Positions 33,918 through 49,281 of a stretch of 64,000 nucleotides of DNA are shown here, piece after piece (within the stretch, counting starts at the first letter, position 1; each line of letters opens with the position of its first letter). Under the pieces are notes generated by a model, which did not search any database, was not told where the DNA came from, and was given only the letters and a program-made list of their open reading frames with translations. Source of the DNA: Bdellovibrionia bacterium (lineage in GTDB: Bacteria; Bdellovibrionota; Bdellovibrionia; Bdellovibrionales; UBA1609); assembly GCA_030432925.1 (NCBI GenBank), contig JAUILT010000001.1, forward strand, positions 13,468-77,467, in the 5' to 3' direction. Made by a program: the position numbers and the translations under genes.

Positions 33918-35166
33918 AAAGATTCTTCTCAACAAAAAAACTCTCAGTTGGGCTCTCTATGATTGGGGGAATTCCGCATTCGCCACCACAGTCATTGCAG
34001 GTTTTTTTCCGATTTTTTTTAAATCCTATTGGGCTCATGATGTATCTCCCCAAGACTCTACATTTTATTTGGGCCTAAGCAACTCCATAAGTAGTTTCTC
34101 TCTCGCTCTATTGGCTCCTTTCCTTGGTTATTTAGCTGATCAAGGTCGCTGTAAAAAACAGTTTTTATCAGGCTTTGCAGCTTTGGGGATTCTCTGCACA
34201 GCCTGTTTGTTTTTTCTCTCCCAAGGGCAAATGTTTTTGGCCTGTACGCTCTTTGCCTTGGCGTCTTTAGGCTTTTCTGGTGGAAATATATTCTATGACG
34301 GCTTAATTGTGGATATCTCTGACAAAAAGTGGTTTCACATAGTTTCTGGGTATGGTTATGCCCTTGGCTACCTTGGCGGAGGTTTATTATTTGCTGTCAA
34401 TGTAGCTATGACTCTAAAACCAGAGTTATTTGGTCTTGCTGATAAAGTCGAGGCTGTTCAAGTGAGTTTTTTAACAGTTGCTGTCTGGTGGTTGGCGTTT
34501 ACCGTTCCTTTAATTCTCAATATCCATGAAGAAAGGGGACAACGCCAACATTTACCCCTCTTGCAAGGCCTAAGAGAGTTTATTTCCACACTCAGGACTA
34601 TGATCCATAATCGACCACTGATTTTATTCTTTGTAGCCTATTTATTTTATATTGATGGCGTCAATACGACCATTAAGATGGCCGTGGATTATGGCATGTC
34701 TCTTGGGTTTGAATCAACTCACCTAATTACAGCTCTGCTTATAGTTCAATTTATCGGCTTTCCTGCTGCTATTGGCTTTGGATTTTTGGGACAAAAAGTG
34801 GGCGCTCGACCAGGAATTTTTTTAGCCATAGGGGTTTACGTACTGGTTATTATTGGTGGCTACTTTATGCAAGAGCCCATACACTTTTATCTTATGGCCA
34901 TAGCTATAGGGTGTGTTCAAGGCGGAATTCAGTCCCTGAGCCGCTCTTTTTATGCAGAAATGATTCCTTCTGAAAAATCTGGAGAATTTTTTGGCATATT
35001 CAACATGGTCGGCAAATTCTCCGCTATTCTAGGGCCCATGGCAGTAGGCCTAGTCAGTCACGCAACAGGAAGCTCTCGTTTGTCCATTTTAGTGCTGTTG
35101 ATCTTTTTTGGTATCGGCGCTTTACTATTATACAAAGTCACTGAAGGAGAAACAAAAACCACATGA
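33862..35166 (+). CDS. MFS transporter, UMF1/Atg22-like family
   Basis: 'LSWALYDWGNSAFATTVIAGFFPIFFK' and 12 predicted helices. The start is uncertain: TTG 33838, ATG 33862, or TTG 33907 preceded by GGTGGA. Confidence 0.8.
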   Translation: MYKKLLHNGSSGGKKLISKKILLNKKTLSWALYDWGNSAFATTVIAGFFPIFFKSYWAHDVSPQDSTFYLGLSNSISSFSLALLAPFLGYLADQGRCKKQFLSGFAALGILCTACLFFLSQGQMFLACTLFALASLGFSGGNIFYDGLIVDISDKKWFHIVSGYGYALGYLGGGLLFAVNVAMTLKPELFGLADKVEAVQVSFLTVAVWWLAFTVPLILNIHEERGQRQHLPLLQGLREFISTLRTMIHNRPLILFFVAYLFYIDGVNTTIKMAVDYGMSLGFESTHLITALLIVQFIGFPAAIGFGFLGQKVGARPGIFLAIGVYVLVIIGGYFMQEPIHFYLMAIAIGCVQGGIQSLSRSFYAEMIPSEKSGEFFGIFNMVGKFSAILGPMAVGLVSHATGSSRLSILVLLIFFGIGALLLYKVTEGETKTT

Positions 35167-38090
35167 GAATACTTGTGTTAATTGGGATGATGATATCAGG
35201 AGGATTCCCTTGTTGGACTTCAGCCCAATTGGACCCTTCTCTCTCTTGGAGAGTGATTGAAACAGATCATTTTGAGGTGATTTACTCCACCTCTTATAAC
35301 GAACTCGCCCGTGTTTACGCCTATGAGGCCGAACAAAGTTATACAAGCCTGAAGCCTGTATTTGGAGAAGTCACAGAGAAAACCATTGTTGTTATTGTGG
35401 ATAATACAGACCTTACTAATGGCTACGCTCATTTTCTTCCCTACCCGCACATAGTGCTCTTTCCCGTGCTTCCAGGAGATCTAACAACTATTAACTACTT
35501 TGATAACTGGGCCCGAGATCTCATGATTCATGAATATACTCATATTCTCAGTCTTCAGCCCTCCAATGGGTTTTATACACCATTAAGGTGGATTTTTGGA
35601 ACTATTGTCCGCCCCAATGCGATTTTACCAAGGTGGTTTCTTGAGGGTGTCGCTGTGCAAGTGGAAAGTCGCTATACGGCCAAAGGAAGACTGAACAACC
35701 CAGCCACAATGGGCGTTCTTCGAGCCATGGTCAAGGACAATACACTTCAAGAAAATAGCCTCGATAAAATCAATGAAACTGACATCCCTACTTACCCCTT
35801 TGGACGACGCCCCTATTTATTTGGATCTCTTTTATGGCAAGAAATGCTTGAGAAAGCAAAACCTGGTTTAGTAGAGCGTCTGCACCAACGTCACTCTCGT
35901 AGACTACCATTTTTGCTGAATACCCCCATCAATGATGAGACTGGAAGCACTTACGCTCAGCTTTTGCATGACCGTTATCAAAAAATTACTGAAAATGCCC
36001 AACGACAAATTCGCTATCTAAAGTCTTCCGGAGACTTCAGCGGTAAGAGAATAAAGACGCTTAATGGCAACACTCATATATCTCCAAAAGTCAGCCCCAA
36101 CGGGCAGCACCTGATATTTATTAACTATGACACCAAAGCAGGATCTCGCATTCAGATCCTCTCTAAAACCGATCAAACCAGCGATTCATTTCAAAGAATA
36201 AAAGCTAAAAATCTATTGACCTCTTCAGGAACACAAAGGCTTGACTGGTTCCCTGATTCAAAGAAGTTTATTTACGAAAAAGTAGGACGCTGGAAACGTT
36301 ATTATTACTTTTCTGATCTCTATATCTACGATATGGAGAAAAAAACATCTGAGAGACTCACCCATGGAGCTCGAGCTCGTGAGGCAGCAGTATCTCCTAA
36401 TGGCACTCACCTGGCTTTTGTCTCCTTAAAAGGTGCTCGCACTTCACTCTCTATTTTAAATTTATCTGACAAATCCACCTCTCAACTCTTTCAACCGGCA
36501 GCATTCAATCGCATCAGTTCTCCACTTTGGTTAAGCCCCCAGCGCTTAGCCTTCATCGGCCGAAGTAAAAAAGGAGGAGCTCAATCTCTTTATGCCTATG
36601 ATCTCAATACGGATAAAACAAAAGTCATCGGCAAACCCAGGAAACTACTTACCAAGTTCCACCACATCTCACAACCAGTAATGACCAATGCTGGACTCCT
36701 TTTTGTATCTCATGATTCAGGTGTCGCCAATTTATATCTGGCACCCAAACCCTTTAACCGAGCCTGGGCCATTTCTAATTCTCTAACTCATGTCCTTAAT
36801 GGAGATATGGACCCTCAATCCAAAGATATCATATTTTCTCAGTCCACAGGCAGTGGGCCCAAGCTACACACTCTGCGCAATCAAAAACCTGTGCACCTTA
36901 AACGTCTAAAAAAATCTGCTGTTAAAAATTTAAAACCTTTAGGTCCTGTGTCCAAGCGAGACTCCAAATCAGTGCGCATGGAAGAGGAGGATTTTTGGGG
37001 TATTGAGTACCTTCTTCCTCGCTATTGGATTCCGTTTGTATTTCCCATCGAAGGGGGGGCTATTTTTCAAGGCTCTGTTGCGGCCAATGATCCACTGAAT
37101 ATCAATACCTGGTACCTCAATGGATCTGTTGATACGGTCACAGAGAAGGTCAGTTACGGAGTGGGGTACTTCAATCAAAGCACTCCCATAGGGCTAGGAC
37201 TTGATTATGCTGAGTTTCAAAATTTTCTTCCCGGAACAGATCTTGTACTCACTCACCGTTTTGCCGCTGCTTCTACAAGTTTTTTTCTCCCATGGCTGTC
37301 ATATAAATGGCGTGGATATTTGAGCTATGTTTATGAGGAAACTGAAATCCCATCAAAAACTTTAAAAGGGTCTGGCCCTAGTGTTGGATTTATCTATTCC
37401 GGCTCCGAGCAAGATGTAAATACTACTGAAACCACACAAAATAGCTCTCTCGTTTCCGTTACTCATACCGAATATCTGGAACAAAGTAGTCACTACAGCT
37501 TTGGCCGTACTCGCGCCCACCTTTATAAATCTTCAAACTTATTTCTTCCCCAAACCCATTCACTAAACCTACATATAAAAGGTTCGCACAGCCCACTCAT
37601 GAACTCAAATCATATTATTCCGTTGGGAGATAAAACTGTCGGTGGAAATTATCTAGTAAATATTATCAATAGCTCCTATATCATGAGGGGTTATCCCACT
37701 GGAGCCTTTGCAGGAAAAATCCTGGTCAATACAAATATAGAATACAAGTTCCCACTTAACGATATTTATAAAACAAATGACTTATTCCCATTGTTTTTCA
37801 AAAATCTAACTTCAACAATTTTTCTCGATGGTGTCGCTGTTGATGGAGGCTATCTTGATAGCAACACAGAAAATTACGAAACCTCTACCATCGAAGAACC
37901 CTTCTGGTCTACAGGTATAGAATTTAATATAAACACAACAGTGGCCTACCACCTACCTGTGACATTCACTCTTGGTCTGTATTATGGTTTCACTGAAAAA
38001 TCTGGCGGCGGCTTTACACCCTTTATAAGCCTTGGTTACACAGGTCACGGTGGTGTGGACACTAACAAAAGTCCCCATTCACAGAAATAA
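35163..38090 (+). CDS. fusion protein: HExxH peptidase-like domain, TolB-like beta-propeller, C-terminal Omp85/D15-like beta-barrel
   Basis: The ATG overlaps the MFS stop (ATGA). It has a signal peptide and 'ARDLMIHEYTHIL'. PD40-type repeats are 'ISPKVSPNGQHLIFINYD' and 'AAVSPNGTHLAFVS'. The C-terminus has 'ILVNTNIEYKFPL'. Confidence 0.75.
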   Translation: MRILVLIGMMISGGFPCWTSAQLDPSLSWRVIETDHFEVIYSTSYNELARVYAYEAEQSYTSLKPVFGEVTEKTIVVIVDNTDLTNGYAHFLPYPHIVLFPVLPGDLTTINYFDNWARDLMIHEYTHILSLQPSNGFYTPLRWIFGTIVRPNAILPRWFLEGVAVQVESRYTAKGRLNNPATMGVLRAMVKDNTLQENSLDKINETDIPTYPFGRRPYLFGSLLWQEMLEKAKPGLVERLHQRHSRRLPFLLNTPINDETGSTYAQLLHDRYQKITENAQRQIRYLKSSGDFSGKRIKTLNGNTHISPKVSPNGQHLIFINYDTKAGSRIQILSKTDQTSDSFQRIKAKNLLTSSGTQRLDWFPDSKKFIYEKVGRWKRYYYFSDLYIYDMEKKTSERLTHGARAREAAVSPNGTHLAFVSLKGARTSLSILNLSDKSTSQLFQPAAFNRISSPLWLSPQRLAFIGRSKKGGAQSLYAYDLNTDKTKVIGKPRKLLTKFHHISQPVMTNAGLLFVSHDSGVANLYLAPKPFNRAWAISNSLTHVLNGDMDPQSKDIIFSQSTGSGPKLHTLRNQKPVHLKRLKKSAVKNLKPLGPVSKRDSKSVRMEEEDFWGIEYLLPRYWIPFVFPIEGGAIFQGSVAANDPLNINTWYLNGSVDTVTEKVSYGVGYFNQSTPIGLGLDYAEFQNFLPGTDLVLTHRFAAASTSFFLPWLSYKWRGYLSYVYEETEIPSKTLKGSGPSVGFIYSGSEQDVNTTETTQNSSLVSVTHTEYLEQSSHYSFGRTRAHLYKSSNLFLPQTHSLNLHIKGSHSPLMNSNHIIPLGDKTVGGNYLVNIINSSYIMRGYPTGAFAGKILVNTNIEYKFPLNDIYKTNDLFPLFFKNLTSTIFLDGVAVDGGYLDSNTENYETSTIEEPFWSTGIEFNINTTVAYHLPVTFTLGLYYGFTEKSGGGFTPFISLGYTGHGGVDTNKSPHSQK

Positions 38091-39179: not shown

Positions 39180-41546
39180 GTGGAGAAAAAACTGCTTTAC
39201 AGTGCCATTGCACTGTTTACCCTGGAACTGGTTATATTTTTGGCAGATCTTGGTTATCTACCAACTCCCATATTTGAATCCAATGAGGTCCAAACACGTC
39301 AACCCATGATTGGATTTGTCAGAAAAACCAGAGAGACTGTTCGAAAAAAGTCCCATGAATCTATTTTCTGGCAACCTACGTCCAATAAAGATACTTTAAA
39401 TGCCTATGACTCGATACTCACACTTGAAAATAGTGCTGCCGAACTGGAATTGGAAAATGACATTCAGCTAAATCTCAACGGCAATACCCTAGTGGTGTTG
39501 GAGCCTGTAGAAGCCCAAGGACAAAAGCGTTTTCGTATTCAGTTTCAAAAAGGTAATCTTCGAACTCTTTCTTCAAAACAAGATGTCACCATGAAAACCA
39601 GCGACTGGATACTAGAAGCCAATAAAGGCACTGATATTTCTGTTACTCAGATGAAAGATCAACACATTCAAGTGGAAGTCTTAAAAGGTCAGGCTCGAAT
39701 AAGTCATACAGAGGTCAAAAAAAACAGTACCATTATCAGCTCTGGATCAAGAGTGGCTCTATCCAAACAACACGTAAAGTCTGCAGTAAAAATTTCAAAA
39801 GACTTTGAGTGGATAACCAATAACAACCAAATGGTGAAGTATGATTATCAGTTTCCAACACCCGTAACACTGAGCTGGAAAGGTCGTGCTACACGACTGC
39901 GCTTACTTCAACCAGGACAAAACTTTATAAATAAAAAACTACGGACTGACCGCCATGGCACTTGGACTGGTCAATTTGAACCCGGTACATGGCTCATCAC
40001 TGCAGAAACAAACACTTCCACCTCCCCCACTCTAATGCTTAAAGTTCTTCCGACAAAAAAGCCTCGCTACCTGAGCCCTCTTCCTAGAGATCGACATGAC
40101 GCAACCACAACCACTCTCTTCGATTGGTTAAAACATCCAGATATAGATGAATATGAATTACAAATTTCTGATACCTCAGATTTTTCAAACATCTTGGAAA
40201 CCTATAAGACTAAAGATACACATTTGGACATTTTTTTAAAATCTTCAGGCCTTATCTACTGGAGGCTTCAAGGAAATGATCACAGAGGCTATCAAGTTCC
40301 AGCATTTTATATTTACCCCCTATATAACGTAAAAACTCCTCTGGACCCACCTCAACTTCGACCACCTTTACAAAGACAACCCGCTCAGAAAAAACAAAAA
40401 AAAGGAACCTCTTTATTAAAAAAGTTTTATCAAAAACAGTCCGTTTTGGGTATAATCGATTGGCTGCTTCCAACAGCTCATGCTAAAAATACTCCCTCCC
40501 CTTCGCCAGAAAAAACAAAAAAAACTATAATTTTCAGTTGGTATGAAGTTCCCGAAGCAGATTATTATGTGATCGAGATTTCTGTCTCGAAAGACTTTCT
40601 AAACCCTCTTTTGGTAAAAAAAGTGACTCAAACAGAGTTTTCCTGGTCAGAATTTGATATCAATACCTACTATTACAGAGTCGCGGCGGCACAAAATAAT
40701 GGGCGTATGGGATTATTTTCTACACCAGAAGAGGTTAACCTAAATCTTCTTGATACAGAAACAGCATCTAAAGAACTTAAACCCGGAGTGCGTTTGAGTA
40801 TTGAAAAAATAAAAAATAAAATTAAAAAACAACAAAAAGAAGATACAACAGAACTTGAAAAAAAAACCACCAAACCAAAGAATATAGTTGTGCGCTCTGT
40901 ACTGAAAGTAGAGAAGCCAGTGGCTCTTAAGCGCCATGAAATGAACATTACAGGGTCACTATTTTGGTCCGGAGGATATATTATCAACTCTCACTCCACA
41001 AAAAATAGTGTTAAAGCCCATCAAAGTGGCTTTTCTGTCCGAAGACTGGGACTCAACTTGACCCTTCCTATGCACAAATATGGACATCTGTCTCTTCATT
41101 CAGAATACAATGAAAATAAATGGCAGTCTGACACTGATAAACTGCCATTTCAAAACTCTCTGATACAGACTCATTGGTTCCACTCCTTGATGTACGCCTC
41201 TCAAAACTCCCCATCCCCTTATGGATTATTTTATGAATCTATTGGTATTGCCGAACGATCTGGCAGCGAATCAATGAGTTTAAAGAATATTGAGATCTAC
41301 GGCCTATTAACAAAAACCAGATATCAATTTTTTTCATCATGGAATACACAACACACCTTGGGTATGGGTTATGGCCCCCCTTTCTTTGTTCTTCACTCTG
41401 ACAATTATGTATTTTACGGATTAAATTTTTGGGGAGAACATACTGGCAATACAGGCTTAGAGTTTAACATCAAATACGGCCAAGGCAGCAGTGGTCTCAA
41501 CTTTATTTATTCACAGATTATGTACCGCATTGGCTTTGAGTTTTAA
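39180..41546 (+). CDS. large envelope protein: N-terminal TM, FecR-like region, two repeated beta-sandwich modules, Lys-rich linker, C-terminal barrel-like region
   Basis: GTG start. Repeats are 'YELQISDTSDFSNILE...LIYWRLQG' and 'YYVIEISVSKDFLNPL...YYYRVAA'. It ends '...MYRIGFEF'. Confidence 0.6.
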   Translation: MEKKLLYSAIALFTLELVIFLADLGYLPTPIFESNEVQTRQPMIGFVRKTRETVRKKSHESIFWQPTSNKDTLNAYDSILTLENSAAELELENDIQLNLNGNTLVVLEPVEAQGQKRFRIQFQKGNLRTLSSKQDVTMKTSDWILEANKGTDISVTQMKDQHIQVEVLKGQARISHTEVKKNSTIISSGSRVALSKQHVKSAVKISKDFEWITNNNQMVKYDYQFPTPVTLSWKGRATRLRLLQPGQNFINKKLRTDRHGTWTGQFEPGTWLITAETNTSTSPTLMLKVLPTKKPRYLSPLPRDRHDATTTTLFDWLKHPDIDEYELQISDTSDFSNILETYKTKDTHLDIFLKSSGLIYWRLQGNDHRGYQVPAFYIYPLYNVKTPLDPPQLRPPLQRQPAQKKQKKGTSLLKKFYQKQSVLGIIDWLLPTAHAKNTPSPSPEKTKKTIIFSWYEVPEADYYVIEISVSKDFLNPLLVKKVTQTEFSWSEFDINTYYYRVAAAQNNGRMGLFSTPEEVNLNLLDTETASKELKPGVRLSIEKIKNKIKKQQKEDTTELEKKTTKPKNIVVRSVLKVEKPVALKRHEMNITGSLFWSGGYIINSHSTKNSVKAHQSGFSVRRLGLNLTLPMHKYGHLSLHSEYNENKWQSDTDKLPFQNSLIQTHWFHSLMYASQNSPSPYGLFYESIGIAERSGSESMSLKNIEIYGLLTKTRYQFFSSWNTQHTLGMGYGPPFFVLHSDNYVFYGLNFWGEHTGNTGLEFNIKYGQGSSGLNFIYSQIMYRIGFEF

Positions 41547-43184
41547 AGCCAAGAGTAAAGGTACCACTAACAAGACAGTCAATACAAAAAGAAAAAATAT
41601 GGGCGGTTTTTTTCTATCAAAATCTACAACCATTCCACACCCTCCTCCCTGATCAAAATCAAATTTCTGCTGAAAATAAGGTGAGTAATGAATCTGTATG
41701 CCTTGCAGATAAGACCCATTAGACTCATCAACATTCGTCAAGCTTGCTCTAAAACGAATGTATCGCCCCTGGGGCTCTGTTAGGCTATTAACTTCTACCC
41801 AGGATACAGGAACAAAATCATTACTTTCACCAGAAGAAATATCTAAAAAACTCGAAGCTCCCGAAGAAAGAGAACTTGTCAATGTGACCCCTGTCACACT
41901 GGGACGTGTGCTCATAAAATCAATGGGCTGAGAAGATAAAGTGAATGTTCCTGCTTGAAAGCGGCTATACCCGACATGAGCAAGCAGGGTATCTGGTTTT
42001 TCTGCATTTAAAGCATAAGGCGGAAGAGCTATCGAGTAACCACTCTTACCAGAAGCCCAAGTACGACCAGCACCTCCACGACCACCATTCACTCCAAAAA
42101 TATTGCTCCCCCCCACTCCGCCATAGGCTCGCACCGGACCAGAAATATAAACATCACCCAGTGCAAAAAGCTGAATAGACCCCCCACCACCACCGCCGCC
42201 AGCTCCTGAATTCTGAGTAGCGTTTCCACCACCATTTCCACCATTGGCATAAATACCTCCTGAGGGTGAAATTTTAATATCTCCAAAGGCATGAATAATA
42301 ACTCCTCCACCACCGGCACCTCCACCACCGCCAGAAAGATTCGAAGCCCCCCGATGATCACCTCCTCCACCACCAGCGCCTCCACCTAAAAATAAGAAAC
42401 TATGATCAGGTTCCACATCACCGCTTACGCCACCTGTTCCTGGCATCTGTGCGGTTCCAGCCTCTGCAACGCTGGCCGCAGTATTGGCTGTATAAGAGCC
42501 ACCGCCACCGCCGCCAGAACCAGTTCCACTAGAAGAGGCTGCTCTCCCAGGACTCGGCTTTCCGGGAACAACTGTCACGCCCAAAAACTCACCACTTTCA
42601 GCCTCCACAGTAATGGCTGAAACAACGTAGGATCCGGCGCCTCCAGCCCCACCTCCACAACGGCCTGTTCCTCCCAAGGCCTTTGTATCAAGATTTTGAA
42701 AGCTCTCTCCATCCTCTCCAGAGCAATCAATAGAACCATCAATAATGACATCTCCTTGAGAGTAAATGACCAGAGCGTTATCTCCCTCAGGCTGCAATGT
42801 CCAACCAGAATCCAAATAAAATCCTGTTACCTGAAGCTGTGAATACATCGACGTATCTAAACGAATAATGTTACCAGAAATATCACCATCTTTTGAGAAA
42901 TGAGAATATGTTGTAGAATCAAAAACCCCATGCTCCCCACTACCAATATCAAAATTTTTGGAAAGTGTAACATTGCCTGCCGTTACGTAGTTATTGATTT
43001 TTAAAGGGGGATGAAGCGCTTGCAGAGAAATATTCCACTCCAAAGTACCGGAATCTTTATTAAGTAAAAGTGAAAAATCCTCAGAAACCTGTGCTGCCTG
43101 AGCCAAGTTTGACACAATAAAAGAAGCCATCCAGCCACTCAAAATAAATACAAGGTTTGTTCTCCAATCAGGCAGATTCCACAT
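41511..43184 (-). CDS. glycine-rich repetitive secreted protein with C-terminal hydrophobic anchor
   Basis: It has a signal peptide. Gly runs include 'GGGAGGAGS', 'GSGGGGGGSY', 'LGGGAGGGGGD' and 'GAGGGGGGGS', interleaved with 'VIIHAFGDIKISPSGGIYANG'-type strands. The tail is 'GGGCGMVVDFDRKKPPIFFLFVLTVLLVVPLLLALKLK'. Confidence 0.65.
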   Translation of the reverse strand: MWNLPDWRTNLVFILSGWMASFIVSNLAQAAQVSEDFSLLLNKDSGTLEWNISLQALHPPLKINNYVTAGNVTLSKNFDIGSGEHGVFDSTTYSHFSKDGDISGNIIRLDTSMYSQLQVTGFYLDSGWTLQPEGDNALVIYSQGDVIIDGSIDCSGEDGESFQNLDTKALGGTGRCGGGAGGAGSYVVSAITVEAESGEFLGVTVVPGKPSPGRAASSSGTGSGGGGGGSYTANTAASVAEAGTAQMPGTGGVSGDVEPDHSFLFLGGGAGGGGGDHRGASNLSGGGGGAGGGGVIIHAFGDIKISPSGGIYANGGNGGGNATQNSGAGGGGGGGSIQLFALGDVYISGPVRAYGGVGGSNIFGVNGGRGGAGRTWASGKSGYSIALPPYALNAEKPDTLLAHVGYSRFQAGTFTLSSQPIDFMSTRPSVTGVTLTSSLSSGASSFLDISSGESNDFVPVSWVEVNSLTEPQGRYIRFRASLTNVDESNGSYLQGIQIHYSPYFQQKFDFDQGGGCGMVVDFDRKKPPIFFLFVLTVLLVVPLLLALKLKANAVHNL

Positions 43185-43584
43185 AGTCTTCCCAGCCCAT
43201 AATATCCCAAATCTTTTTTCTTAAAATATCGGCACGAAATGGTTTAATGATATAGGAACTCACTTTCATTTGTGCCGCCTGAGTAACTTTAAACCGTTCC
43301 ATGGACCTCTGGGATGTAATCATTATGAAGCTCGTGTTCTTCCTCAATGGATGATTACGCACAGCTTTTAATAAGGTAAGTCCATTTAATCCAGGCATTT
43401 CCCAATCTGATATGATTAATCCAATGGAATTTTTTTGGTCATTGATATATGACAATGCGCTCTTGGGATCTTGCATGGATTTTATATTTGTAAAACCATA
43501 TCCCTTCAAGTACTCAACAAGAACTTCTCTTACCATAGCATCGTCATCTATTAATAATATTGGCAATGTATAATTAGCGTTCAT
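43168..43584 (-). CDS. single-domain CheY-like response regulator
   Basis: 'ILLIDDDAMVREVL...LIISDWEMPGLNG...YIIKPF'. The ATG at 43584 overlaps the upstream stop by 1 nt (TGATG). The first 'M' in the track is a TTG. Confidence 0.85.
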   Translation of the reverse strand: MNANYTLPILLIDDDAMVREVLVEYLKGYGFTNIKSMQDPKSALSYINDQKNSIGLIISDWEMPGLNGLTLLKAVRNHPLRKNTSFIMITSQRSMERFKVTQAAQMKVSSYIIKPFRADILRKKIWDIMGWEDYVESA

Positions 43585-44876
43585 CAAACAGCTCCATTTG
43601 GTTTACATGCTTTTGGTAATCGAATCACTGCCTCAAGGCCCTTAACTCCATGGTTAACTAGTTGAAACTCTCCTTGATGATCTACCTCAATAATTTCACG
43701 GCAAATAGGAAGCCCCAATCCGGTGCCTTGTTTGCCCTTTGTCGTATAAAAGGGCTCTAATACCTTGTCCATAAGTTCTTTTTTGATACCAGGTCCATAA
43801 TCTCTCAATCGAATTTCAGCAAACTCACCAACATCAGTAACTGTTAAGTCAATTTGTCCACTGTTTCCCATTGCGTGAATAGAGTTAATAGTAAGATTCA
43901 CAAGCACTTGAAGTATTGAGGTTTGATTAACGTGAATACTAACTTTTTCTGTTTTAATCCTGCAGACTTTTAATTGAGATACTTTAATCTTATGCTCCAT
44001 TAATACCAGAACCTCATCCAATAAACTATGAGCATAAATATCTGTTTTTTCTCGTGCGGACTCTGCAGGATTGGACAGATCCTTAAATTTTTCTAAGATC
44101 TCATTTGCTCTTCCTGTAGCGTCCAAAATGACTTCTAACCCTGCTTTCATTTTTTCAGGATTCTTTTCCGCCAAACAAATATCCGCTTTACCCATAATTT
44201 GCATAAGTAGATTACCAAATTCGTGAGAAACCCCTCTAGCGACAGCCGCAATGGAGCTTAGTTTTTCACTCTCCATCAAACGCCTTTGAGCTTCAGCTAA
44301 TTGTGCGTTCTGCAGTTTTTTTTCTTCGTTCAGATTCCATAATGAAGTAAAATTTCTAGCCTTTTGCAGAATCTCCCCATTACTGAAGGGTTTATTTAAA
44401 TAATCCCAGCGGTTAGTTTTATCCTCACCAAGAAATTGCTGAATAGAATCAACACTCCGATCATTGAAGGCAGTAACAAATACTGCGTACATGTTTGGAT
44501 CCAAATCATGAATTTCTTTAACCAAATCAAACCCATCTTTGCTCCCGCCTAACAATACGTCAAAGAAACCCATAGCAAATGGCGCCCCTTCACGAATTTG
44601 CTTTTTAACAATGGCTAGAGCTTCATCATAGTTTTTTGCTACAACAACCCTGAACTCTGTATCACTTCGAATAGTTTCAGGCCTTTGTGACCTGGAGCTT
44701 TTTATGGAAATCACATTATTTTCGGCTTCAGGGGTTAAAATATCTAGGTAGGATTGAATAATTTCTCTTTCATCATCAACAACCAAAATCCGATGATTGT
44801 GTTTAAACTCAGACTTAGATAATGCCTGGTTTTCTTGCATGGATTTATGCTTAACAATTTTTGCTAGCTGCTTCAT
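43584..44876 (-). CDS. histidine kinase with N-terminal receiver-like domain
   Basis: 'ILVVDDEREII...FFDVLLGG...LNKPF', H-box 'SHEFGNLLMQI', G-boxes 'GPGIKKE' and 'GTGLGLPICREI'. The ATG at 44876 forms an ATGA overlap with the upstream kinase stop. Confidence 0.85.
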   Translation of the reverse strand: MKQLAKIVKHKSMQENQALSKSEFKHNHRILVVDDEREIIQSYLDILTPEAENNVISIKSSRSQRPETIRSDTEFRVVVAKNYDEALAIVKKQIREGAPFAMGFFDVLLGGSKDGFDLVKEIHDLDPNMYAVFVTAFNDRSVDSIQQFLGEDKTNRWDYLNKPFSNGEILQKARNFTSLWNLNEEKKLQNAQLAEAQRRLMESEKLSSIAAVARGVSHEFGNLLMQIMGKADICLAEKNPEKMKAGLEVILDATGRANEILEKFKDLSNPAESAREKTDIYAHSLLDEVLVLMEHKIKVSQLKVCRIKTEKVSIHVNQTSILQVLVNLTINSIHAMGNSGQIDLTVTDVGEFAEIRLRDYGPGIKKELMDKVLEPFYTTKGKQGTGLGLPICREIIEVDHQGEFQLVNHGVKGLEAVIRLPKACKPNGAV

Positions 44877-46969
44877 GCCACATCCCTCTCTTCTACACCT
44901 TGAACAGGTGGCAGGGTTACGCAAAATATGGCACCTTCGCCTGGCACTGATTTCTCTAGGGTAATATCACCACCATGGGCCCTTATGAATCTTCGGCTAA
45001 TATTTAACCCCAGGCCTGTTCCTTGTTCTCTTTTTTTCGTGGTAAACTGAGATTGAAAGAGCTTTTTTATATGGTTCTCTTCAATTCCCACACCATTATC
45101 CTCTATTAAAATCTCTGTGGATTGGTCTTGTTTTCTTCGCACATGAATCTGAATTAAACCTCGAAATCCAGCCTCAACATCTTTCGCCTTATATTCCATA
45201 ATAGCCTGAATGGAATTTCTAATCATATTTGTCATGCTCTGCAGAAACTCATCTCTATCTAGAGCTACTTGAATTGTCGGGTCTGGTTGTGAGATAACGA
45301 CTGTAATATCTTCTTTAGAAGCAAAGTCAGCCATGATATTGACTGTCTCATCCAGTATAGGAGCCAATTCATGAACACGTTTTTCACTTTTTACAATAGA
45401 TAAATTTCTCATACTCTGAACAATCCGGTTGATTCTCTCAGATTCTCGAATCAAGAACTCTGTATCGCTAATTAAACTTTTCCATTCTAAATGAAAGTGA
45501 GCATCCAGTTTCTGTAAATTATCTAGATCTTCATCCCAAAGAGATTCTCCAGGTTTTAACAAAGATGGCTGTTTCCAGTTTTTGATCAACTCATTAAAGC
45601 CTCCTTGAGAATAATCCCTCCTCCAGCTTTCTGTGATTTCTCGAAACAACTGTGATTTCTGGTTTTTTTCTAGTCGACTTTTAATTTTCTGAATGCGCGA
45701 TAAAATAGATGTTAATGGGTTAAGAACTTCATGAGCAGCCCTTCCAGCGATCTCTCCGACTGATGCCAACCTTGTCGTTCGTAGCAAGGCTTCTTGAGCA
45801 TCCTTCACAGCCTGATTTTGTTTCTCTAACTGCTGAGTACGCTCTTTAACCTTGGCTTCCAAGTTTCTGTTAGCCTCTTCCAACTGCTCACGACTCTGCT
45901 TCAAGTCAATAATCATTGCATTGAACTGATCGGCAAGAACTCGGATTTCATCTCTTGACTGAACTTCAATCTGTGTTTCAAGATTTCCCGTAGAGACCTC
46001 TTTCATCCCCCCGACAAGAACCTCCAGAGGTCGAGTCAGTGACTGAGAAAATAAAATAGCCGCGATAAAAGCTAGGGTTCCTACCATCATAGCAAAAAGA
46101 AGAGAACGCATCACCAACCGGTTCACTACTGAAAATGCCTTAGCTTCAGAGACCATAGAAATTACGTTCACTTGATCACCATAGGTTCTGGAAAACCCTC
46201 CTAAAATTCGACCATGATTTGTCTGCATTTCAAGAACAGATGTTCTTGCGGGAGTGTTTAAAGCTTTTTCGATCACTCCACTTTCAACAACTTGCTTACC
46301 ACGCATAACTTCAGCATTTGAATGGATCAGCACTTCTCCATCTTTATTAATAAGAAAAACGTCATTATAAGTTCCACTAGTGATAGATTTTAAAATTTTA
46401 TCTGCCTTAATAAAGGCTACCACTGCGTAATGATTTACAACCTGTCCACTTTCAGTCTCCTCCACAACGCTCTTACCATACCCTATCAAAGGAGGTCCCG
46501 CTTTTTTGGTGGCATTCCAGATGGCTTCTCCATCTCGTTTAATTCTTGCAAAAGGAATTTGAGATGAAAGGTCTACAGTAATATAAGAATCACTGACCCC
46601 ATAGGTTTCTAGATAAGTTTTGTCCAGATGAAATTGCCGAGTTAAGCCCTTAAAATCCTCACTTCCAGAGACGTAAACCAAATCTGAGTTATCATGAATT
46701 AACTTTTGAATAACACCCAGTGATTTTTTACTTTTCGAACGAAAAAAATAAGCCACTAACTCCATTTTATCAGAAGAGTTTTGAAACAAAGACTGAACAT
46801 CTGAGGATATATTGGTAACAAGGCTCCGGTTATAATCAAAAACCAGGTTCAGTTTATCCGTACGAATCACAGTAGTTGCCATTAACAAATAGGCCGTCAC
46901 ACAAAAAACCAACAGGGCTGTTGTCACCATGAGAAATTTGTAGCGAATAGAAAATCTTTGTTTCTTCAT
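44873..46969 (-). CDS. membrane sensor histidine kinase (periplasmic Cache-like domain, HAMP, HisKA, HATPase)
   Basis: Two TM helices flank a loop of about 270 aa. HAMP 'RPLEVLVGGMKEVSTGNLETQIEV', H-box 'AHEVLNPLTSI', 'GTGLGLNISRRFIRAHGG'. Confidence 0.85.
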   Translation of the reverse strand: MKKQRFSIRYKFLMVTTALLVFCVTAYLLMATTVIRTDKLNLVFDYNRSLVTNISSDVQSLFQNSSDKMELVAYFFRSKSKKSLGVIQKLIHDNSDLVYVSGSEDFKGLTRQFHLDKTYLETYGVSDSYITVDLSSQIPFARIKRDGEAIWNATKKAGPPLIGYGKSVVEETESGQVVNHYAVVAFIKADKILKSITSGTYNDVFLINKDGEVLIHSNAEVMRGKQVVESGVIEKALNTPARTSVLEMQTNHGRILGGFSRTYGDQVNVISMVSEAKAFSVVNRLVMRSLLFAMMVGTLAFIAAILFSQSLTRPLEVLVGGMKEVSTGNLETQIEVQSRDEIRVLADQFNAMIIDLKQSREQLEEANRNLEAKVKERTQQLEKQNQAVKDAQEALLRTTRLASVGEIAGRAAHEVLNPLTSILSRIQKIKSRLEKNQKSQLFREITESWRRDYSQGGFNELIKNWKQPSLLKPGESLWDEDLDNLQKLDAHFHLEWKSLISDTEFLIRESERINRIVQSMRNLSIVKSEKRVHELAPILDETVNIMADFASKEDITVVISQPDPTIQVALDRDEFLQSMTNMIRNSIQAIMEYKAKDVEAGFRGLIQIHVRRKQDQSTEILIEDNGVGIEENHIKKLFQSQFTTKKREQGTGLGLNISRRFIRAHGGDITLEKSVPGEGAIFCVTLPPVQGVEERDVA

Positions 46970-47038
46970 TTATTTTACCTACTTGCTTACCGATGCTATC
47001 GGTTTTTTTACATCCAAAAAGTAGGCAAAAACCCCTAT

Positions 47039-48208
47039 TTAACGACTGGTTCTAAAGTCCACTGTTGAGGAGCTTGCCGAAAGACCTGTGGCTCCCTTAG
47101 AAATCCCCTTCACTCTGTAGAGACGGTTAGACATAAGTCCTGTTGCGTTTACTGAGTGACTCGTCACCATACTGATGTCTTCCGTGGTAAATATTATTGC
47201 TCCTGATAAAACATCTAGAATTTCCACTTGAGATGTTGAGGCAATGTCCGTATCCCAAGTCACCGTTGCCCCACTGGTCCCAATACTACTAACGGCAATA
47301 TTTGAAAGTGTCGGAGGAACAGGATCATCACAAGGATTATCCTCTTCACCATCCGGAAGTGAGTAATTTTCAGGAGTCAAAGGCGCCCAAGTTCTATCTA
47401 ACAAACCTAAGTAGGCTTGCTGTGGCTCCGGAGGACTCTGCTTCGAGTCAAAAAATCTGGAATTTCCCTGCTTGCCACACTCAGGATCCTCTCGGTCAAC
47501 CACCTGCTCTGGCAATGGTCGCATCATGACCACCAGAGAAATGTGGTACCGAGGCCCTTGAAAATATTTTATGCGAAACTTGTATTCTGTATTTTCACCA
47601 AAATACACAGGCATCTGTCCACACCCCATTTTTGTAGGATGAGTGCCATCACTATCTACAATGGTTTCAAACTCACCATCATCATCCAAATCCATTTCCA
47701 TAACGACTCCATCATCTGCCAGAATAGCAAACTGGTAATTACCAACTGCTTGAGTCGAGTTGAGATGAATTTTTCCATGAATATCCAAGGCAAACCACTC
47801 ATACAAGGTATCTCCCTCAGGAGTCATCATTGTGGTTCCACCCTCAGTAACAAACCCCCTATTAAATGGGCGTGTTGGAAGATTCAGCTGATTAAAATAT
47901 ATATCCACATCTTCATAGGAAAGCCCATAGTCCAAGTAGTCATCAACATACTGATATTCTGGGGCATCATCTGGGAGGTAATAAAGTTGAGCTAAAACAC
48001 CTTGTCGATCATCAATGACCGAAGGTGGATGACCTCCACTGTCTGGGTCTACAACGGGATCACAGATATATGTATCCCTGTCCCTTGGAAGCTCTGCCGG
48101 CCATGTTGCTTCTGTTCCATCTTCTTGAATTGTACCTTGATCCTCACAGGCCACCAAAAATATACAGGACGCAATGAGAACCAAGATTCTTGCACAAACG
48201 TCCCGCAT
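47039..48208 (-). CDS. lipoprotein with PA14-like domain and C-terminal fibronectin-III-like domain
   Basis: Lipobox 'FLVAC'. 'GVLAQLYYLPDD...EWFALDIHGKIHL...GNYQFAILADDGVVMEMD' and 'PTLSNIAVSSIGTSGATVTWDTDIASTSQVE'. Confidence 0.65.
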   Translation of the reverse strand: MRDVCARILVLIASCIFLVACEDQGTIQEDGTEATWPAELPRDRDTYICDPVVDPDSGGHPPSVIDDRQGVLAQLYYLPDDAPEYQYVDDYLDYGLSYEDVDIYFNQLNLPTRPFNRGFVTEGGTTMMTPEGDTLYEWFALDIHGKIHLNSTQAVGNYQFAILADDGVVMEMDLDDDGEFETIVDSDGTHPTKMGCGQMPVYFGENTEYKFRIKYFQGPRYHISLVVMMRPLPEQVVDREDPECGKQGNSRFFDSKQSPPEPQQAYLGLLDRTWAPLTPENYSLPDGEEDNPCDDPVPPTLSNIAVSSIGTSGATVTWDTDIASTSQVEILDVLSGAIIFTTEDISMVTSHSVNATGLMSNRLYRVKGISKGATGLSASSSTVDFRTSR

Positions 48209-48645
48209 CGTGAATCCCTTTGGTTAGTTCTTCCTCTAGTATAAAATCTCCTCCAAGGAATGTGTGCAAAAACTGCCTATGACTGACTCGTGTTGAGAAA
48301 CAGATGAAGAGTTCCATGTAACTAGCTAAAATTTCTAAATAAATATATGATATTTTTTTAACAAACTGTGTTTCAGTTGGAGGCAAATCTTCTGGATGTA
48401 CTTTTTCGGCAAAGCTTCTGAGAAGACTGAGAAAGAACCAATAAATTATAATAGTTAGTATATTCAATAAGTTAAAGAGTTATGTAACGACTCTTAAAAA
48501 AACTCCCCCATGGCACTAGACATTAAACACCAGTTGTCATATACCTACCTCCTTAAAACCACTGAATAATCCAGCCTTTAGGCACTGTTACGGACAGGGA
48601 GGATTCAGGTCTGTTAAACGCCGTGAAGATTGAAAGGTCTACTTC

Positions 48646-49281
48646 ATGGGAAAAAAGAAGCCGGGCAAAATAGCTCGTTTTAAGATTCAAAGACGATTTG
48701 GAGCCGAACTTCCTGGCCTAGGTAAAGCAGGTGCTCTAGAGAGGCGCCCTTATCCTCCAGGGGAAAATGGAAACAAAAGAAAAAAATACTCTGACTTTGC
48801 GCTTCGCCTTGAAGAAAAACAAAAAGTCCGTTTGCACTACGGGCTGAAAGAAAAGCAGTTACGCCGTTTCATACGTGACTCCAAACGGGGCCAGGGAACC
48901 AACTGGGTTGAGAAGCTTGTTGGCCGCCTTGAATGCCGGTTGGACAACCTTGTCTTTCGAATGGGCTTTGCCCCGAGCATTCGTTCTGCACGCCAACTCG
49001 TAAGCCACGGACACATTCTTGTTAATGGTAAAAAAGTCGATGTTTCTTCTTTTGTCACCAAGGTCAGTGATGAGGTGACAATCACCGATAAAGCTAAAGA
49101 AAACCAAATTTACTTACAGGCTCAAAAGTCACCTCGCCTAGAAGTGGCTGATTTCCTTAGAGTTGAGGAAAAAGACGGAAAGCCTTTAGGAATTGTCCAA
49201 GCCGTCCCTGGCAAAGAACATGTTCCCTTTGGTTTTGATGCCGGTTTGTTTACAGAATACTATGCTGCGAGAAAAGCCTAA
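48646..49281 (+). CDS. rpsD: 30S ribosomal protein S4
   Basis: 'RLDNLVFRMGFAPSIRSARQLVSHGHILVNGKKVDVSSF'. It is monocistronic, with about 150 nt of leader. Confidence 0.95.
   Translation: MGKKKPGKIARFKIQRRFGAELPGLGKAGALERRPYPPGENGNKRKKYSDFALRLEEKQKVRLHYGLKEKQLRRFIRDSKRGQGTNWVEKLVGRLECRLDNLVFRMGFAPSIRSARQLVSHGHILVNGKKVDVSSFVTKVSDEVTITDKAKENQIYLQAQKSPRLEVADFLRVEEKDGKPLGIVQAVPGKEHVPFGFDAGLFTEYYAARKA

Follow-up and report, generated by a model that had tools for sequence, protein, structure and literature searches.

A 64,000-nt stretch of DNA from a Bdellovibrionia bacterium (GenBank assembly GCA_030432925.1, contig JAUILT010000001.1, positions 13,468 to 77,467; hereafter "the window") carries five minus-strand genes that encode a lipoprotein with fn3- and PA14-like regions, two histidine kinases (HK1 and HK2), a receiver-only response regulator (RR) and a glycine-rich (Gly-rich) exported protein. 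A sixth gene, which converges on the Gly-rich gene from the opposite strand, encodes an envelope protein with a FecR domain, immunoglobulin-like (Ig) domains and a β-barrel. This cluster is probably an undescribed envelope or surface sensor. In the more specific interpretation that we favor, which is tentative and a little short of probable, it is a conserved trans-envelope sensory module in which the exported proteins serve as the sensing apparatus of a non-transcriptional two-kinase relay. This interpretation draws on loci in which the arrangement varies, the absence of DNA-binding domains, the translational coupling of the genes and the signaling pedigree of the FecR domain.

Gene order, coupling and variant loci

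Table 1. Features of the cluster and its surroundings, with positions in the window.
Feature	Coordinates	Strand	Basis
fn3/PA14-like lipoprotein gene, 389 aa	47039-48208	-	six-frame open reading frame (ORF) list
HK1, sensor histidine kinase, 698 aa	44873-46969	-	ORF list; Pfam HAMP, HATPase_c
HK2, cytoplasmic REC-HisKA-HATPase_c kinase, 430 aa	43584-44876	-	ORF list; Pfam
RR, receiver-only response regulator, CheY-like, 138 aa	43168-43584	-	ORF list; Pfam Response_reg
Gly-rich exported protein, 557 aa	41511-43184	-	ORF list, alignment, AlphaFold2 (AF2) model
FecR/Ig/β-barrel envelope protein, convergent, 788 aa	39180-41546	+	Pfam FecR, AF2, Foldseek
REC-GGDEF, candidate output enzyme, 312 aa	38121-39059	-	Pfam, alignment to PleD/WspR
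Intergenic region, 437 nt, presumed operon promoter region	48209-48645	n/a	between divergent rpsD and lipoprotein gene

The junctions between the genes (Table 1) were read directly from the sequence. The HK1 stop and the HK2 start overlap by 4 nt (ATGA, 44873-44876), HK2 and RR share one base within TGATG (43584), and the RR and Gly-rich genes share 17 nt (43168-43184). A gap of 69 nt (46970-47038) separates the lipoprotein gene from HK1, and the Gly-rich and barrel genes overlap convergently at their 3′ ends by 36 nt (41511-41546). The five minus-strand ORFs, the three overlaps, the gap and the convergent overlap all lie where the original prediction, made from the sequence alone, had placed them. 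The HK2 and RR reading frames were taken from their ATG codons; the longest HK2 ORF begins with TTG at 44924, and RR has an alternative TTG start at 43587. NCBI gene calls match the 138-aa RR, the 557-aa Gly-rich product and the 312-aa REC-GGDEF protein.

A word-indexed search with the Gly-rich protein retrieved 32 clusters, nearly all metagenomic. Nineteen loci around relatives were collected, with their ORFs matched to the window proteins, and a metagenome scan contributed 2 loci. A trimmed alignment of the Gly-rich N-domain was used for the genome scan; a poly-Gly pattern gave 600 false stretches. The cluster was found again in at least 18 related metagenome contigs, at 30-50% protein identity and with differing flanks, and all named carriers are Bdellovibrionales, Pseudobdellovibrionaceae or Bdellovibrionia metagenome-assembled genomes. 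The order HK1-HK2-RR-Gly-rich, whose loss in relatives would have spoken against the original prediction, is present in L001, L002, L003, L005, L008, L009, L010, L011, L014, L015, L016, L018 and L019, and is kept as far as the contigs extend in L012 and L013; one locus is rearranged (L004) and one lacks the signaling genes (L017).

The overlaps recur as well. The 4-nt overlap is seen in all eight gene-called loci in which HK1 meets HK2, and the RR and Gly-rich genes overlap by 4-28 nt in 8 of 9 gene-called loci. Every locus of sufficient length has a barrel homolog. In most loci its gene and the Gly-rich gene point directly at each other, as a rule sharing 10-66 nt at their 3′ ends; in L014 the barrel gene is shifted away by 1.2 kb, in L009 by 4.6 kb. 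Chance co-location was rejected, as the same order and overlaps are found in about 18 loci at this level of identity and with changed flanks, and the self-contained module of translationally coupled genes that had been proposed holds up and is conserved. In comparison with the closest relative (L019), the proportion of nonsynonymous differences (pN) was 0.03-0.17 for every gene, far below a saturated synonymous value (pS) of 0.64-0.82, which indicates strong purifying selection on all module genes.

The way in which the convergent Gly-rich and barrel genes overlap at their 3′ ends is itself conserved, being found in the window and in L002, L003, L004, L005, L008, L010 and L019. It leaves no space for a terminator between the two genes and implies overlapping antisense transcripts.

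Three loci show which parts of the arrangement can change. In L004, the Gly-rich gene directly follows HK1, and HK2 lies beyond the barrel gene. L007 (2945-12341) encodes a short Gly-rich homolog that retains the Gly-rich core and the C-terminal Cys-helix-basic tail, paired with a convergent 1085-aa FecR/fn3/barrel homolog; the signaling neighbors here are a sensor-HAMP-SpoIIE (PP2C) phosphatase, a hybrid kinase and a receiver, a 156-aa protein is also encoded there, and the sensor half of the phosphatase aligns to HK1 residues 206-375 (E 1.6e-8). On L017, a 9.5-kb contig on which no kinase is present, the Gly-rich gene is followed 1.9 kb downstream, on the opposite strand, by a FecR-family gene (hhalign 99.5%). 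The kinase set is rearranged in the first of these loci, replaced in the second and absent from the third. Because of these variants the constant unit, as judged from gene content, is the exported pair of Gly-rich and barrel proteins, usually accompanied by a sensor-HAMP transmembrane protein, with the transmitter varying. The barrel gene, initially treated as a mere flank of the cluster, accompanies the Gly-rich gene more constantly than any other gene and is present in all three variants.

The lipoprotein gene behaves differently. It lies directly upstream of HK1 in 9 loci, and probably in L005 too, and is missing in L001, L004 and L008. The earlier picture of a lipoprotein heading the cluster does not survive this comparison; the lipoprotein is a frequent but dispensable member.

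The exported proteins

The Gly-rich protein begins with a signal peptide (cleavage site AQA↓A in the alignment), followed by an N-terminal β domain with conserved Cys154 and Cys176, both invariant in an eight-sequence alignment, and by a core with invariant Gly runs. The AF2 model has a mean predicted local distance difference test score (pLDDT) of 80.8 and a predicted template modeling (TM) score (pTM) of 0.78. In the model, N- and C-terminal β-sandwiches flank a solenoid-like core of short strands with ordered Gly-rich segments, and the protein ends with a disordered linker (506-526) and a helix (529-554). It matched no Pfam or NCBIfam family, and Foldseek searches of the model against the PDB gave nothing convincing; against BFVD they returned only Gly-rich viral proteins (E 5e-8 to 3e-5, TM-scores 0.25-0.4). 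The sole match in a PDB sequence profile search was insignificant (the Obg-type Gly-rich domain of MTG2, E 0.6), and a polyglycine-II structure is not claimed.

An exhaustive profile search recovered at least 394 clusters at E<=1e-30, far above the 32 from the word-indexed search. Most of the best 150 clusters are full-length proteins of about 500-580 aa, and at 50% identity full-length homologs make up over 140 clusters. Searching with an N-domain profile yielded two fragments only. By these sequence comparisons the Gly-rich protein is a previously unclassified family. Giant proteins, the longest of 7437 aa, contain 2-8 repeats of its core (profile positions ~107-371); some of them carry TIG, Calx-beta or Laminin_G_3 domains, and in this setting the core behaves like an extracellular module. 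Between 5 and 8 core copies were counted in P0056 (7437 aa), P0057, P0151, P0157, P0158 and P0192. Matches to gliding_AgmC_N in three giant relatives (17-21 bits vs. a cut-off of 275) were too weak for use.

The C-terminal tail of the Gly-rich protein has a constant design. Cys516 is near-invariant (>=90%) in the context F-x-F-x(2-3)-G-C-G, a hydrophilic spacer of 12-25 residues separates it from a hydrophobic helix whose Pro holds its position in 16 of 21 sequences, and the helix is followed by a K/R-rich basic tail of ~10 residues. The succession of Cys motif, hydrophobic helix and basic cluster is shared with the MYXO-CTERM and JDVT-CTERM signals. In known Cys-type sorting signals, however, the motif abuts the helix, and several proteins per genome carry such signals (10.1101/2023.06.07.544157); the 12-25-residue spacer sets the Gly-rich tail apart from MYXO-CTERM. 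The sorting-signal models gave no match (TIGR03901 reached 9.1 bits in 1 of 5 tails vs. a threshold of 20), no second such tail was present among 493 ORFs in ~280 kb of window and loci, a partial genome sample, and the gene tables of the loci list no CPBP, rhomboid or myxosortase-type gene in the conserved neighborhood. Membership of the tail in the Cys-type sorting signals is, on these comparisons, not supported, and processing of the tail is possible.

The convergent gene was described at the outset as encoding a large FecR-like/barrel envelope protein, and this description is borne out. The FecR domain (PF04773) passes its threshold of 24 bits with 30.2, and homologs are named only "FecR domain-containing protein". 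In the AF2 model (pLDDT 79.4), an N-terminal helix from residue 2 is followed by a FecR-like β domain, three Ig/fn3-like domains and two disordered linkers. Ten long strands at 591-787 form a C-terminal antiparallel barrel, for most of which the block-mean pLDDT lies at 80-94. The chain ends in Phe, and an outer-membrane β-barrel is predicted. Foldseek matched the PupR CCSSD (6ovk_R, E 2.8e-6), a putative anti-sigma factor (4m0h, 2.7e-5) and tandem fn3 proteins.

These matches raised the possibility of a FecR-type anti-sigma regulator, an identity that we reject. A cytoplasmic anti-sigma domain was not found in the barrel protein, whose helix begins at residue 2, and the gene tables of 11 loci list no sigma factor, including the extracytoplasmic function (ECF) type, and no TonB-dependent receptor that could act as transducer. 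The barrel protein uses the periplasmic module of FecR regulators without being one. The FecA-FecR-FecI and PupB-PupR systems share with the cluster the FecR domain, the periplasmic fold that matches PupR and a logic in which a signal passes from outer to inner membrane. The cluster differs from them in that a single protein unites the FecR domain with a β-barrel of its own and with Ig/fn3 domains, and in that the cytoplasmic limb is a predicted two-kinase relay. A long ORF lies antisense inside the barrel gene (40673-40987, minus strand) and is not gene-like.

In the lipoprotein, a lipobox (LVAC), its Cys kept in 7 orthologs, is followed by a middle region resembling PA14 and, at the C-terminus, by fn3. 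Its first designation as a PA14/Fn3 lipoprotein stands for fn3, which was above threshold in 4 of 6 orthologs scanned, and is weaker for PA14 (PF07691): the window protein scores 21.4 bits against a gathering score of 24, and among the six orthologs one reached 28 bits, three 15-22 bits and two gave no match.

The predicted two-kinase relay and a candidate output

HK1 consists of a first transmembrane segment, a periplasmic domain of ~250 aa, a second transmembrane segment, HAMP (45.9 bits), an H-box and HATPase_c (73 bits), and its orthologs are 33-50% identical across loci. It had been labeled a Cache-HAMP kinase. The HAMP half of this label is secure; the Cache half is not, since dCache_1 (PF02743) gave 11.9 bits (E 0.16) in the window protein and did not reach the gathering score of 45. 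Weak dCache_1 matches were obtained in 6 of 11 HK1 sequences, window included, with a best E of 5.7e-4.

HK2 keeps the receiver residues DD/D/T/K and the H-box SHEFGN across 12 loci. RR has Response_reg (78.9 bits) as its sole Pfam domain, in agreement with the CheY-like regulator lacking a DNA-binding domain of the original prediction; its motifs DD, D-W-E-M-P, T, Y and K are likewise conserved in 12 loci. RR is CheY-like by its motifs only, and identity as a CheY ortholog was rejected (NF007901, 72.3 bits vs. an equivalog cut-off of 189). Catalytic and acceptor residues of the kinases and receivers are conserved in 12-13 orthologs, as expected by sequence of a two-component phosphorelay, and Pfam and NCBIfam scans found no DNA-binding domain in any module gene.

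Both kinases have unusual segments. In HK1, the H-box and HATPase_c are separated by ~158 residues vs. ~96 in HK2; the extra length falls at residues ~430-510 and suggests an insertion of ~60-70 residues in or after the hairpin of the dimerization and histidine phosphotransfer (DHp) domain. The HK2 receiver has an insertion between its first strand and helix (residues ~47-75), with an SSR motif strictly conserved in 13 sequences.

Beyond the barrel gene lies a gene for a REC-GGDEF protein, which the initial account of the phosphorelay output had overlooked. The protein aligns to PleD (E 1.9e-41) and has an intact GGDEF motif and RxxD I-site. Its GSFVL segment aligns with GDEVL of PleD and GDEAL of WspR, placing Ser at the PleD-D344 selectivity position. 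Replacement of this residue by Ser or Thr defines the Hypr GGDEF domains, 0.17% of all GGDEF domains (PMC9140294). The selectivity Ser is present in all five copies compared (window, L001, L008, L011 and L013), which identifies them by sequence as putative Hypr enzymes. Bd0367 of Bdellovibrio bacteriovorus is of this type, makes cyclic GMP-AMP (cGAMP) and is needed by the bacterium to glide and to leave its prey; the authors of that study suggest that surface signals are integrated by it, and a text search of the paper found no mention of a histidine kinase (PMC9140294). The window protein resembles Bd0367 (DgcA) and GacA of Geobacter in its predicted combination of REC and GGDEF, selectivity Ser and intact I-site, and the window lineage belongs, like Bdellovibrio, to the predatory Bdellovibrionia.

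Of the 14 loci, window included, whose DNA extends past the barrel gene, 6 have the REC-GGDEF gene there: the window, L001, L008, L011, L013 and L019. The protein is a plausible candidate output only in the subclade in which its gene is adjacent. In L009, the gene beyond the barrel gene was considered and is not REC-GGDEF. Adjoining REC-GGDEF in the window, and in the same place in L011 and L019, is a gene (35163-38090, plus strand) for a 975-aa exported protein with HEYTH (HExxH) near its N-terminus and TolB/Tricorn-like propeller matches.

Proposed mechanism, alternatives and known systems

From the gene content, conservation, coupling, catalytic residues, export signals, folds and Hypr signature, we infer the contacts between the exported proteins and HK1, the direction of the signal, the order of phosphotransfer and the output as follows. 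The Gly-rich β-solenoid protein would be Sec-exported and either held by, or sorted through, its C-terminal Cys-linker-transmembrane-basic tail. Together with the outer-membrane FecR/Ig/barrel protein it would form an extracytoplasmic pair, often joined by the fn3/PA14-like lipoprotein. The periplasmic domain of HK1 may read the state of this pair (contact, load or ligand) and would signal via HK2 and the CheY-like RR to a non-transcriptional output. In the subclade of the window, this output would most likely be the neighboring REC-Hypr-GGDEF of the Bd0367/DgcA type, making cyclic dinucleotides that control surface behavior such as gliding. The strongest form of this proposal, in which the Gly-rich and FecR-Ig-barrel proteins are a new trans-envelope sensor of surface or prey contact that sets cGAMP or cyclic di-GMP levels via the relay and a DgcA-type enzyme, is in our judgment unlikely.

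The arrangements in L004, L007 and L017 argue that the exported pair goes with the sensor module and not with any one fixed output. It had been suggested that the regulator acts on the Gly-rich protein; nothing indicates this, and the variant loci suggest an association of the exported proteins with the sensor-HAMP input. Coupling of the Gly-rich gene to low-abundance signaling genes would fit a stoichiometric partner better than a bulk structural product. Mirror-tree comparisons, with the background of the cytoplasmic proteins removed, gave partial r values of 0.66 for the Gly-rich and barrel proteins and 0.49 for the HK1 periplasmic domain and the barrel protein; as support for a sensor complex, this co-variation is only suggestive.

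Several observations weigh against the exported proteins being the sensing apparatus of the relay. Co-variation of the HK1 periplasmic domain with the Gly-rich protein is almost absent (partial r 0.12). L017 shows that the exported pair can exist without nearby kinases, and the likeness of L007 is distant (P0032, E 1.7e-6). The REC-GGDEF gene is adjacent only in closer relatives of the window. The occurrence of the Gly-rich core in giant proteins suggests a cell-surface adhesin or structural role and not that of a periplasmic co-sensor. Finally, the C-terminal helix could stay in the inner membrane as a permanent anchor or be cleaved off as a sorting signal, and the geometry of the model differs between the two.

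Several of these points bear on the main rival, a possible but somewhat less probable explanation that stays near the original prediction and in which the cluster is a surface structure with its controller: an adhesin-like Gly-rich protein would be displayed with the help of a dedicated barrel, and the relay would control or report on it. The Gly-rich protein would be freed from its C-terminal helix, perhaps with lipidation at Cys516, and the relay would act post-translationally through the CheY-like RR on assembly, display or activity. Such a role is consistent with the 2-8 core repeats in giant TIG, Calx-beta and Laminin_G_3 proteins, with a tripartite tail that has a near-invariant Cys and a helix Pro, judged by the published rules (10.1101/2023.06.07.544157), with the kinase-free pair in L017, with the weak resemblance of the fold to viral fiber-like Gly-rich proteins and with the faster evolution of the exported proteins (p-distance 0.70-0.71 vs. 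0.52-0.54 for the cytoplasmic ones). It sits poorly with the distance of Cys516 from the helix, which known signals abut, with the failure of the sorting-signal models and the absence of a second such tail in the ~280 kb of window and loci, and with the lack of a CPBP or rhomboid protease gene in the conserved neighborhood. In addition, a 10-strand barrel is small as a protein conduit, and the only cytoplasmic part of the Gly-rich protein within reach of the regulator would be its short basic tail.

We regard it as improbable that the kinases and RR form a generic multi-kinase network whose true partners are encoded elsewhere, with the exported genes as co-transcribed passengers of unrelated envelope function. 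Multi-kinase operons that include receiver-only regulators are common, and the partial adjacency of REC-GGDEF also agrees with this idea. The linkage, however, has outlasted saturated synonymous divergence, changed flanks, the rearrangement in L004 and the exchange of transmitter in L007, and the RR/Gly-rich overlap persists in nearly all gene-called loci. A low-complexity artefact that yields no protein, to which a GC content of 0.52 at 42000-42499 and an overlapping same-strand ORF in another frame might have pointed, can be dismissed for the Gly-rich ORF in view of its pN of 0.159 vs. pS of 0.71 relative to L019, its more than 140 full-length homolog clusters, invariant Gly runs, conserved Cys residues and confident AF2 model. 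We take the ORF to encode a real exported protein, as first supposed. The overlapping ORF (42089-42385, minus strand) lies within the Gly-rich gene, is not gene-like and is probably a by-product of the Gly-codon-rich sequence.

The inability of the original prediction to match the cluster to a described system also stands. Literature searches for a described counterpart or for neighbors of bd0367 found nothing, and the Gly-rich protein belongs to no Pfam or NCBIfam family. The closest parallels are partial. Like the cluster, the DivJ/PleC-DivK-PleD system of Caulobacter combines two kinases, a receiver-only regulator and a REC-GGDEF protein with no DNA-binding output in the unit. Orthology is nevertheless lacking (the NCBIfam PleD model gave 191 bits vs. 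a cut-off of 474), HK2 has a receiver of its own, the GGDEF domain here is of the predicted Hypr type (Ser for D344), and DivJ/PleC-DivK-PleD has no counterpart of the Gly-rich and barrel partners. The Rcs relay (RcsF/outer-membrane protein-IgaA-RcsC-RcsD-RcsB) runs from a lipoprotein and barrel in the outer membrane through an accessory protein of the inner membrane to a phosphorelay of several steps; its architecture is analogous to that of the module, no sequence relation was found, and Rcs ends in a DNA-binding regulator whereas the module does not. Myxococcus RedCDEF is an operon that encodes two kinases and receiver-only proteins, with no transcription factor as output. It shares with the cluster the two kinases and receiver-only regulator, and differs in domain order and in lacking exported partners. 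The signaling part of the cluster is an ordinary kind of multi-kinase two-component network. Its new elements are three: a family of Gly-rich proteins, a protein in which FecR is combined with Ig domains and a barrel, and the fixed linkage of these to the relay.

If the sensory-module interpretation is correct, the cluster would represent a new coupling of outer-membrane events to two-component signaling, based on a FecR domain that carries a barrel of its own and on a new Gly-rich fold family. It would also provide a candidate input pathway for the Hypr-GGDEF/cGAMP signaling that acts in gliding and prey exit in Bdellovibrio (PMC9140294), and a first way into the function of a Gly-rich domain that has no Pfam or NCBIfam family yet occurs in at least 394 clusters and in giant adhesin-like proteins. 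Should the model fail, a conserved operon in an uncultured lineage remains.

A few features of the surrounding DNA complete the description. An Rfam scan of the whole window found no RNA family. Promoter and terminator scans gave no excess over shuffled sequences, and the operon promoter was not located in the 437-nt intergenic region. In the lipoprotein-HK1 gap, the sole hairpin, ACCGATGCTATCGGT followed by TTTTTTT at 46989-47003, is terminator-like on the plus strand, antisense to the cluster, and no plus-strand gene ends there. On the far side of the intergenic region, rpsD (ribosomal protein S4; 48646-49281, plus strand) is divergent from the cluster, and it keeps this position in L008, L009, L011 and L019, including L008 in which the lipoprotein gene is missing.

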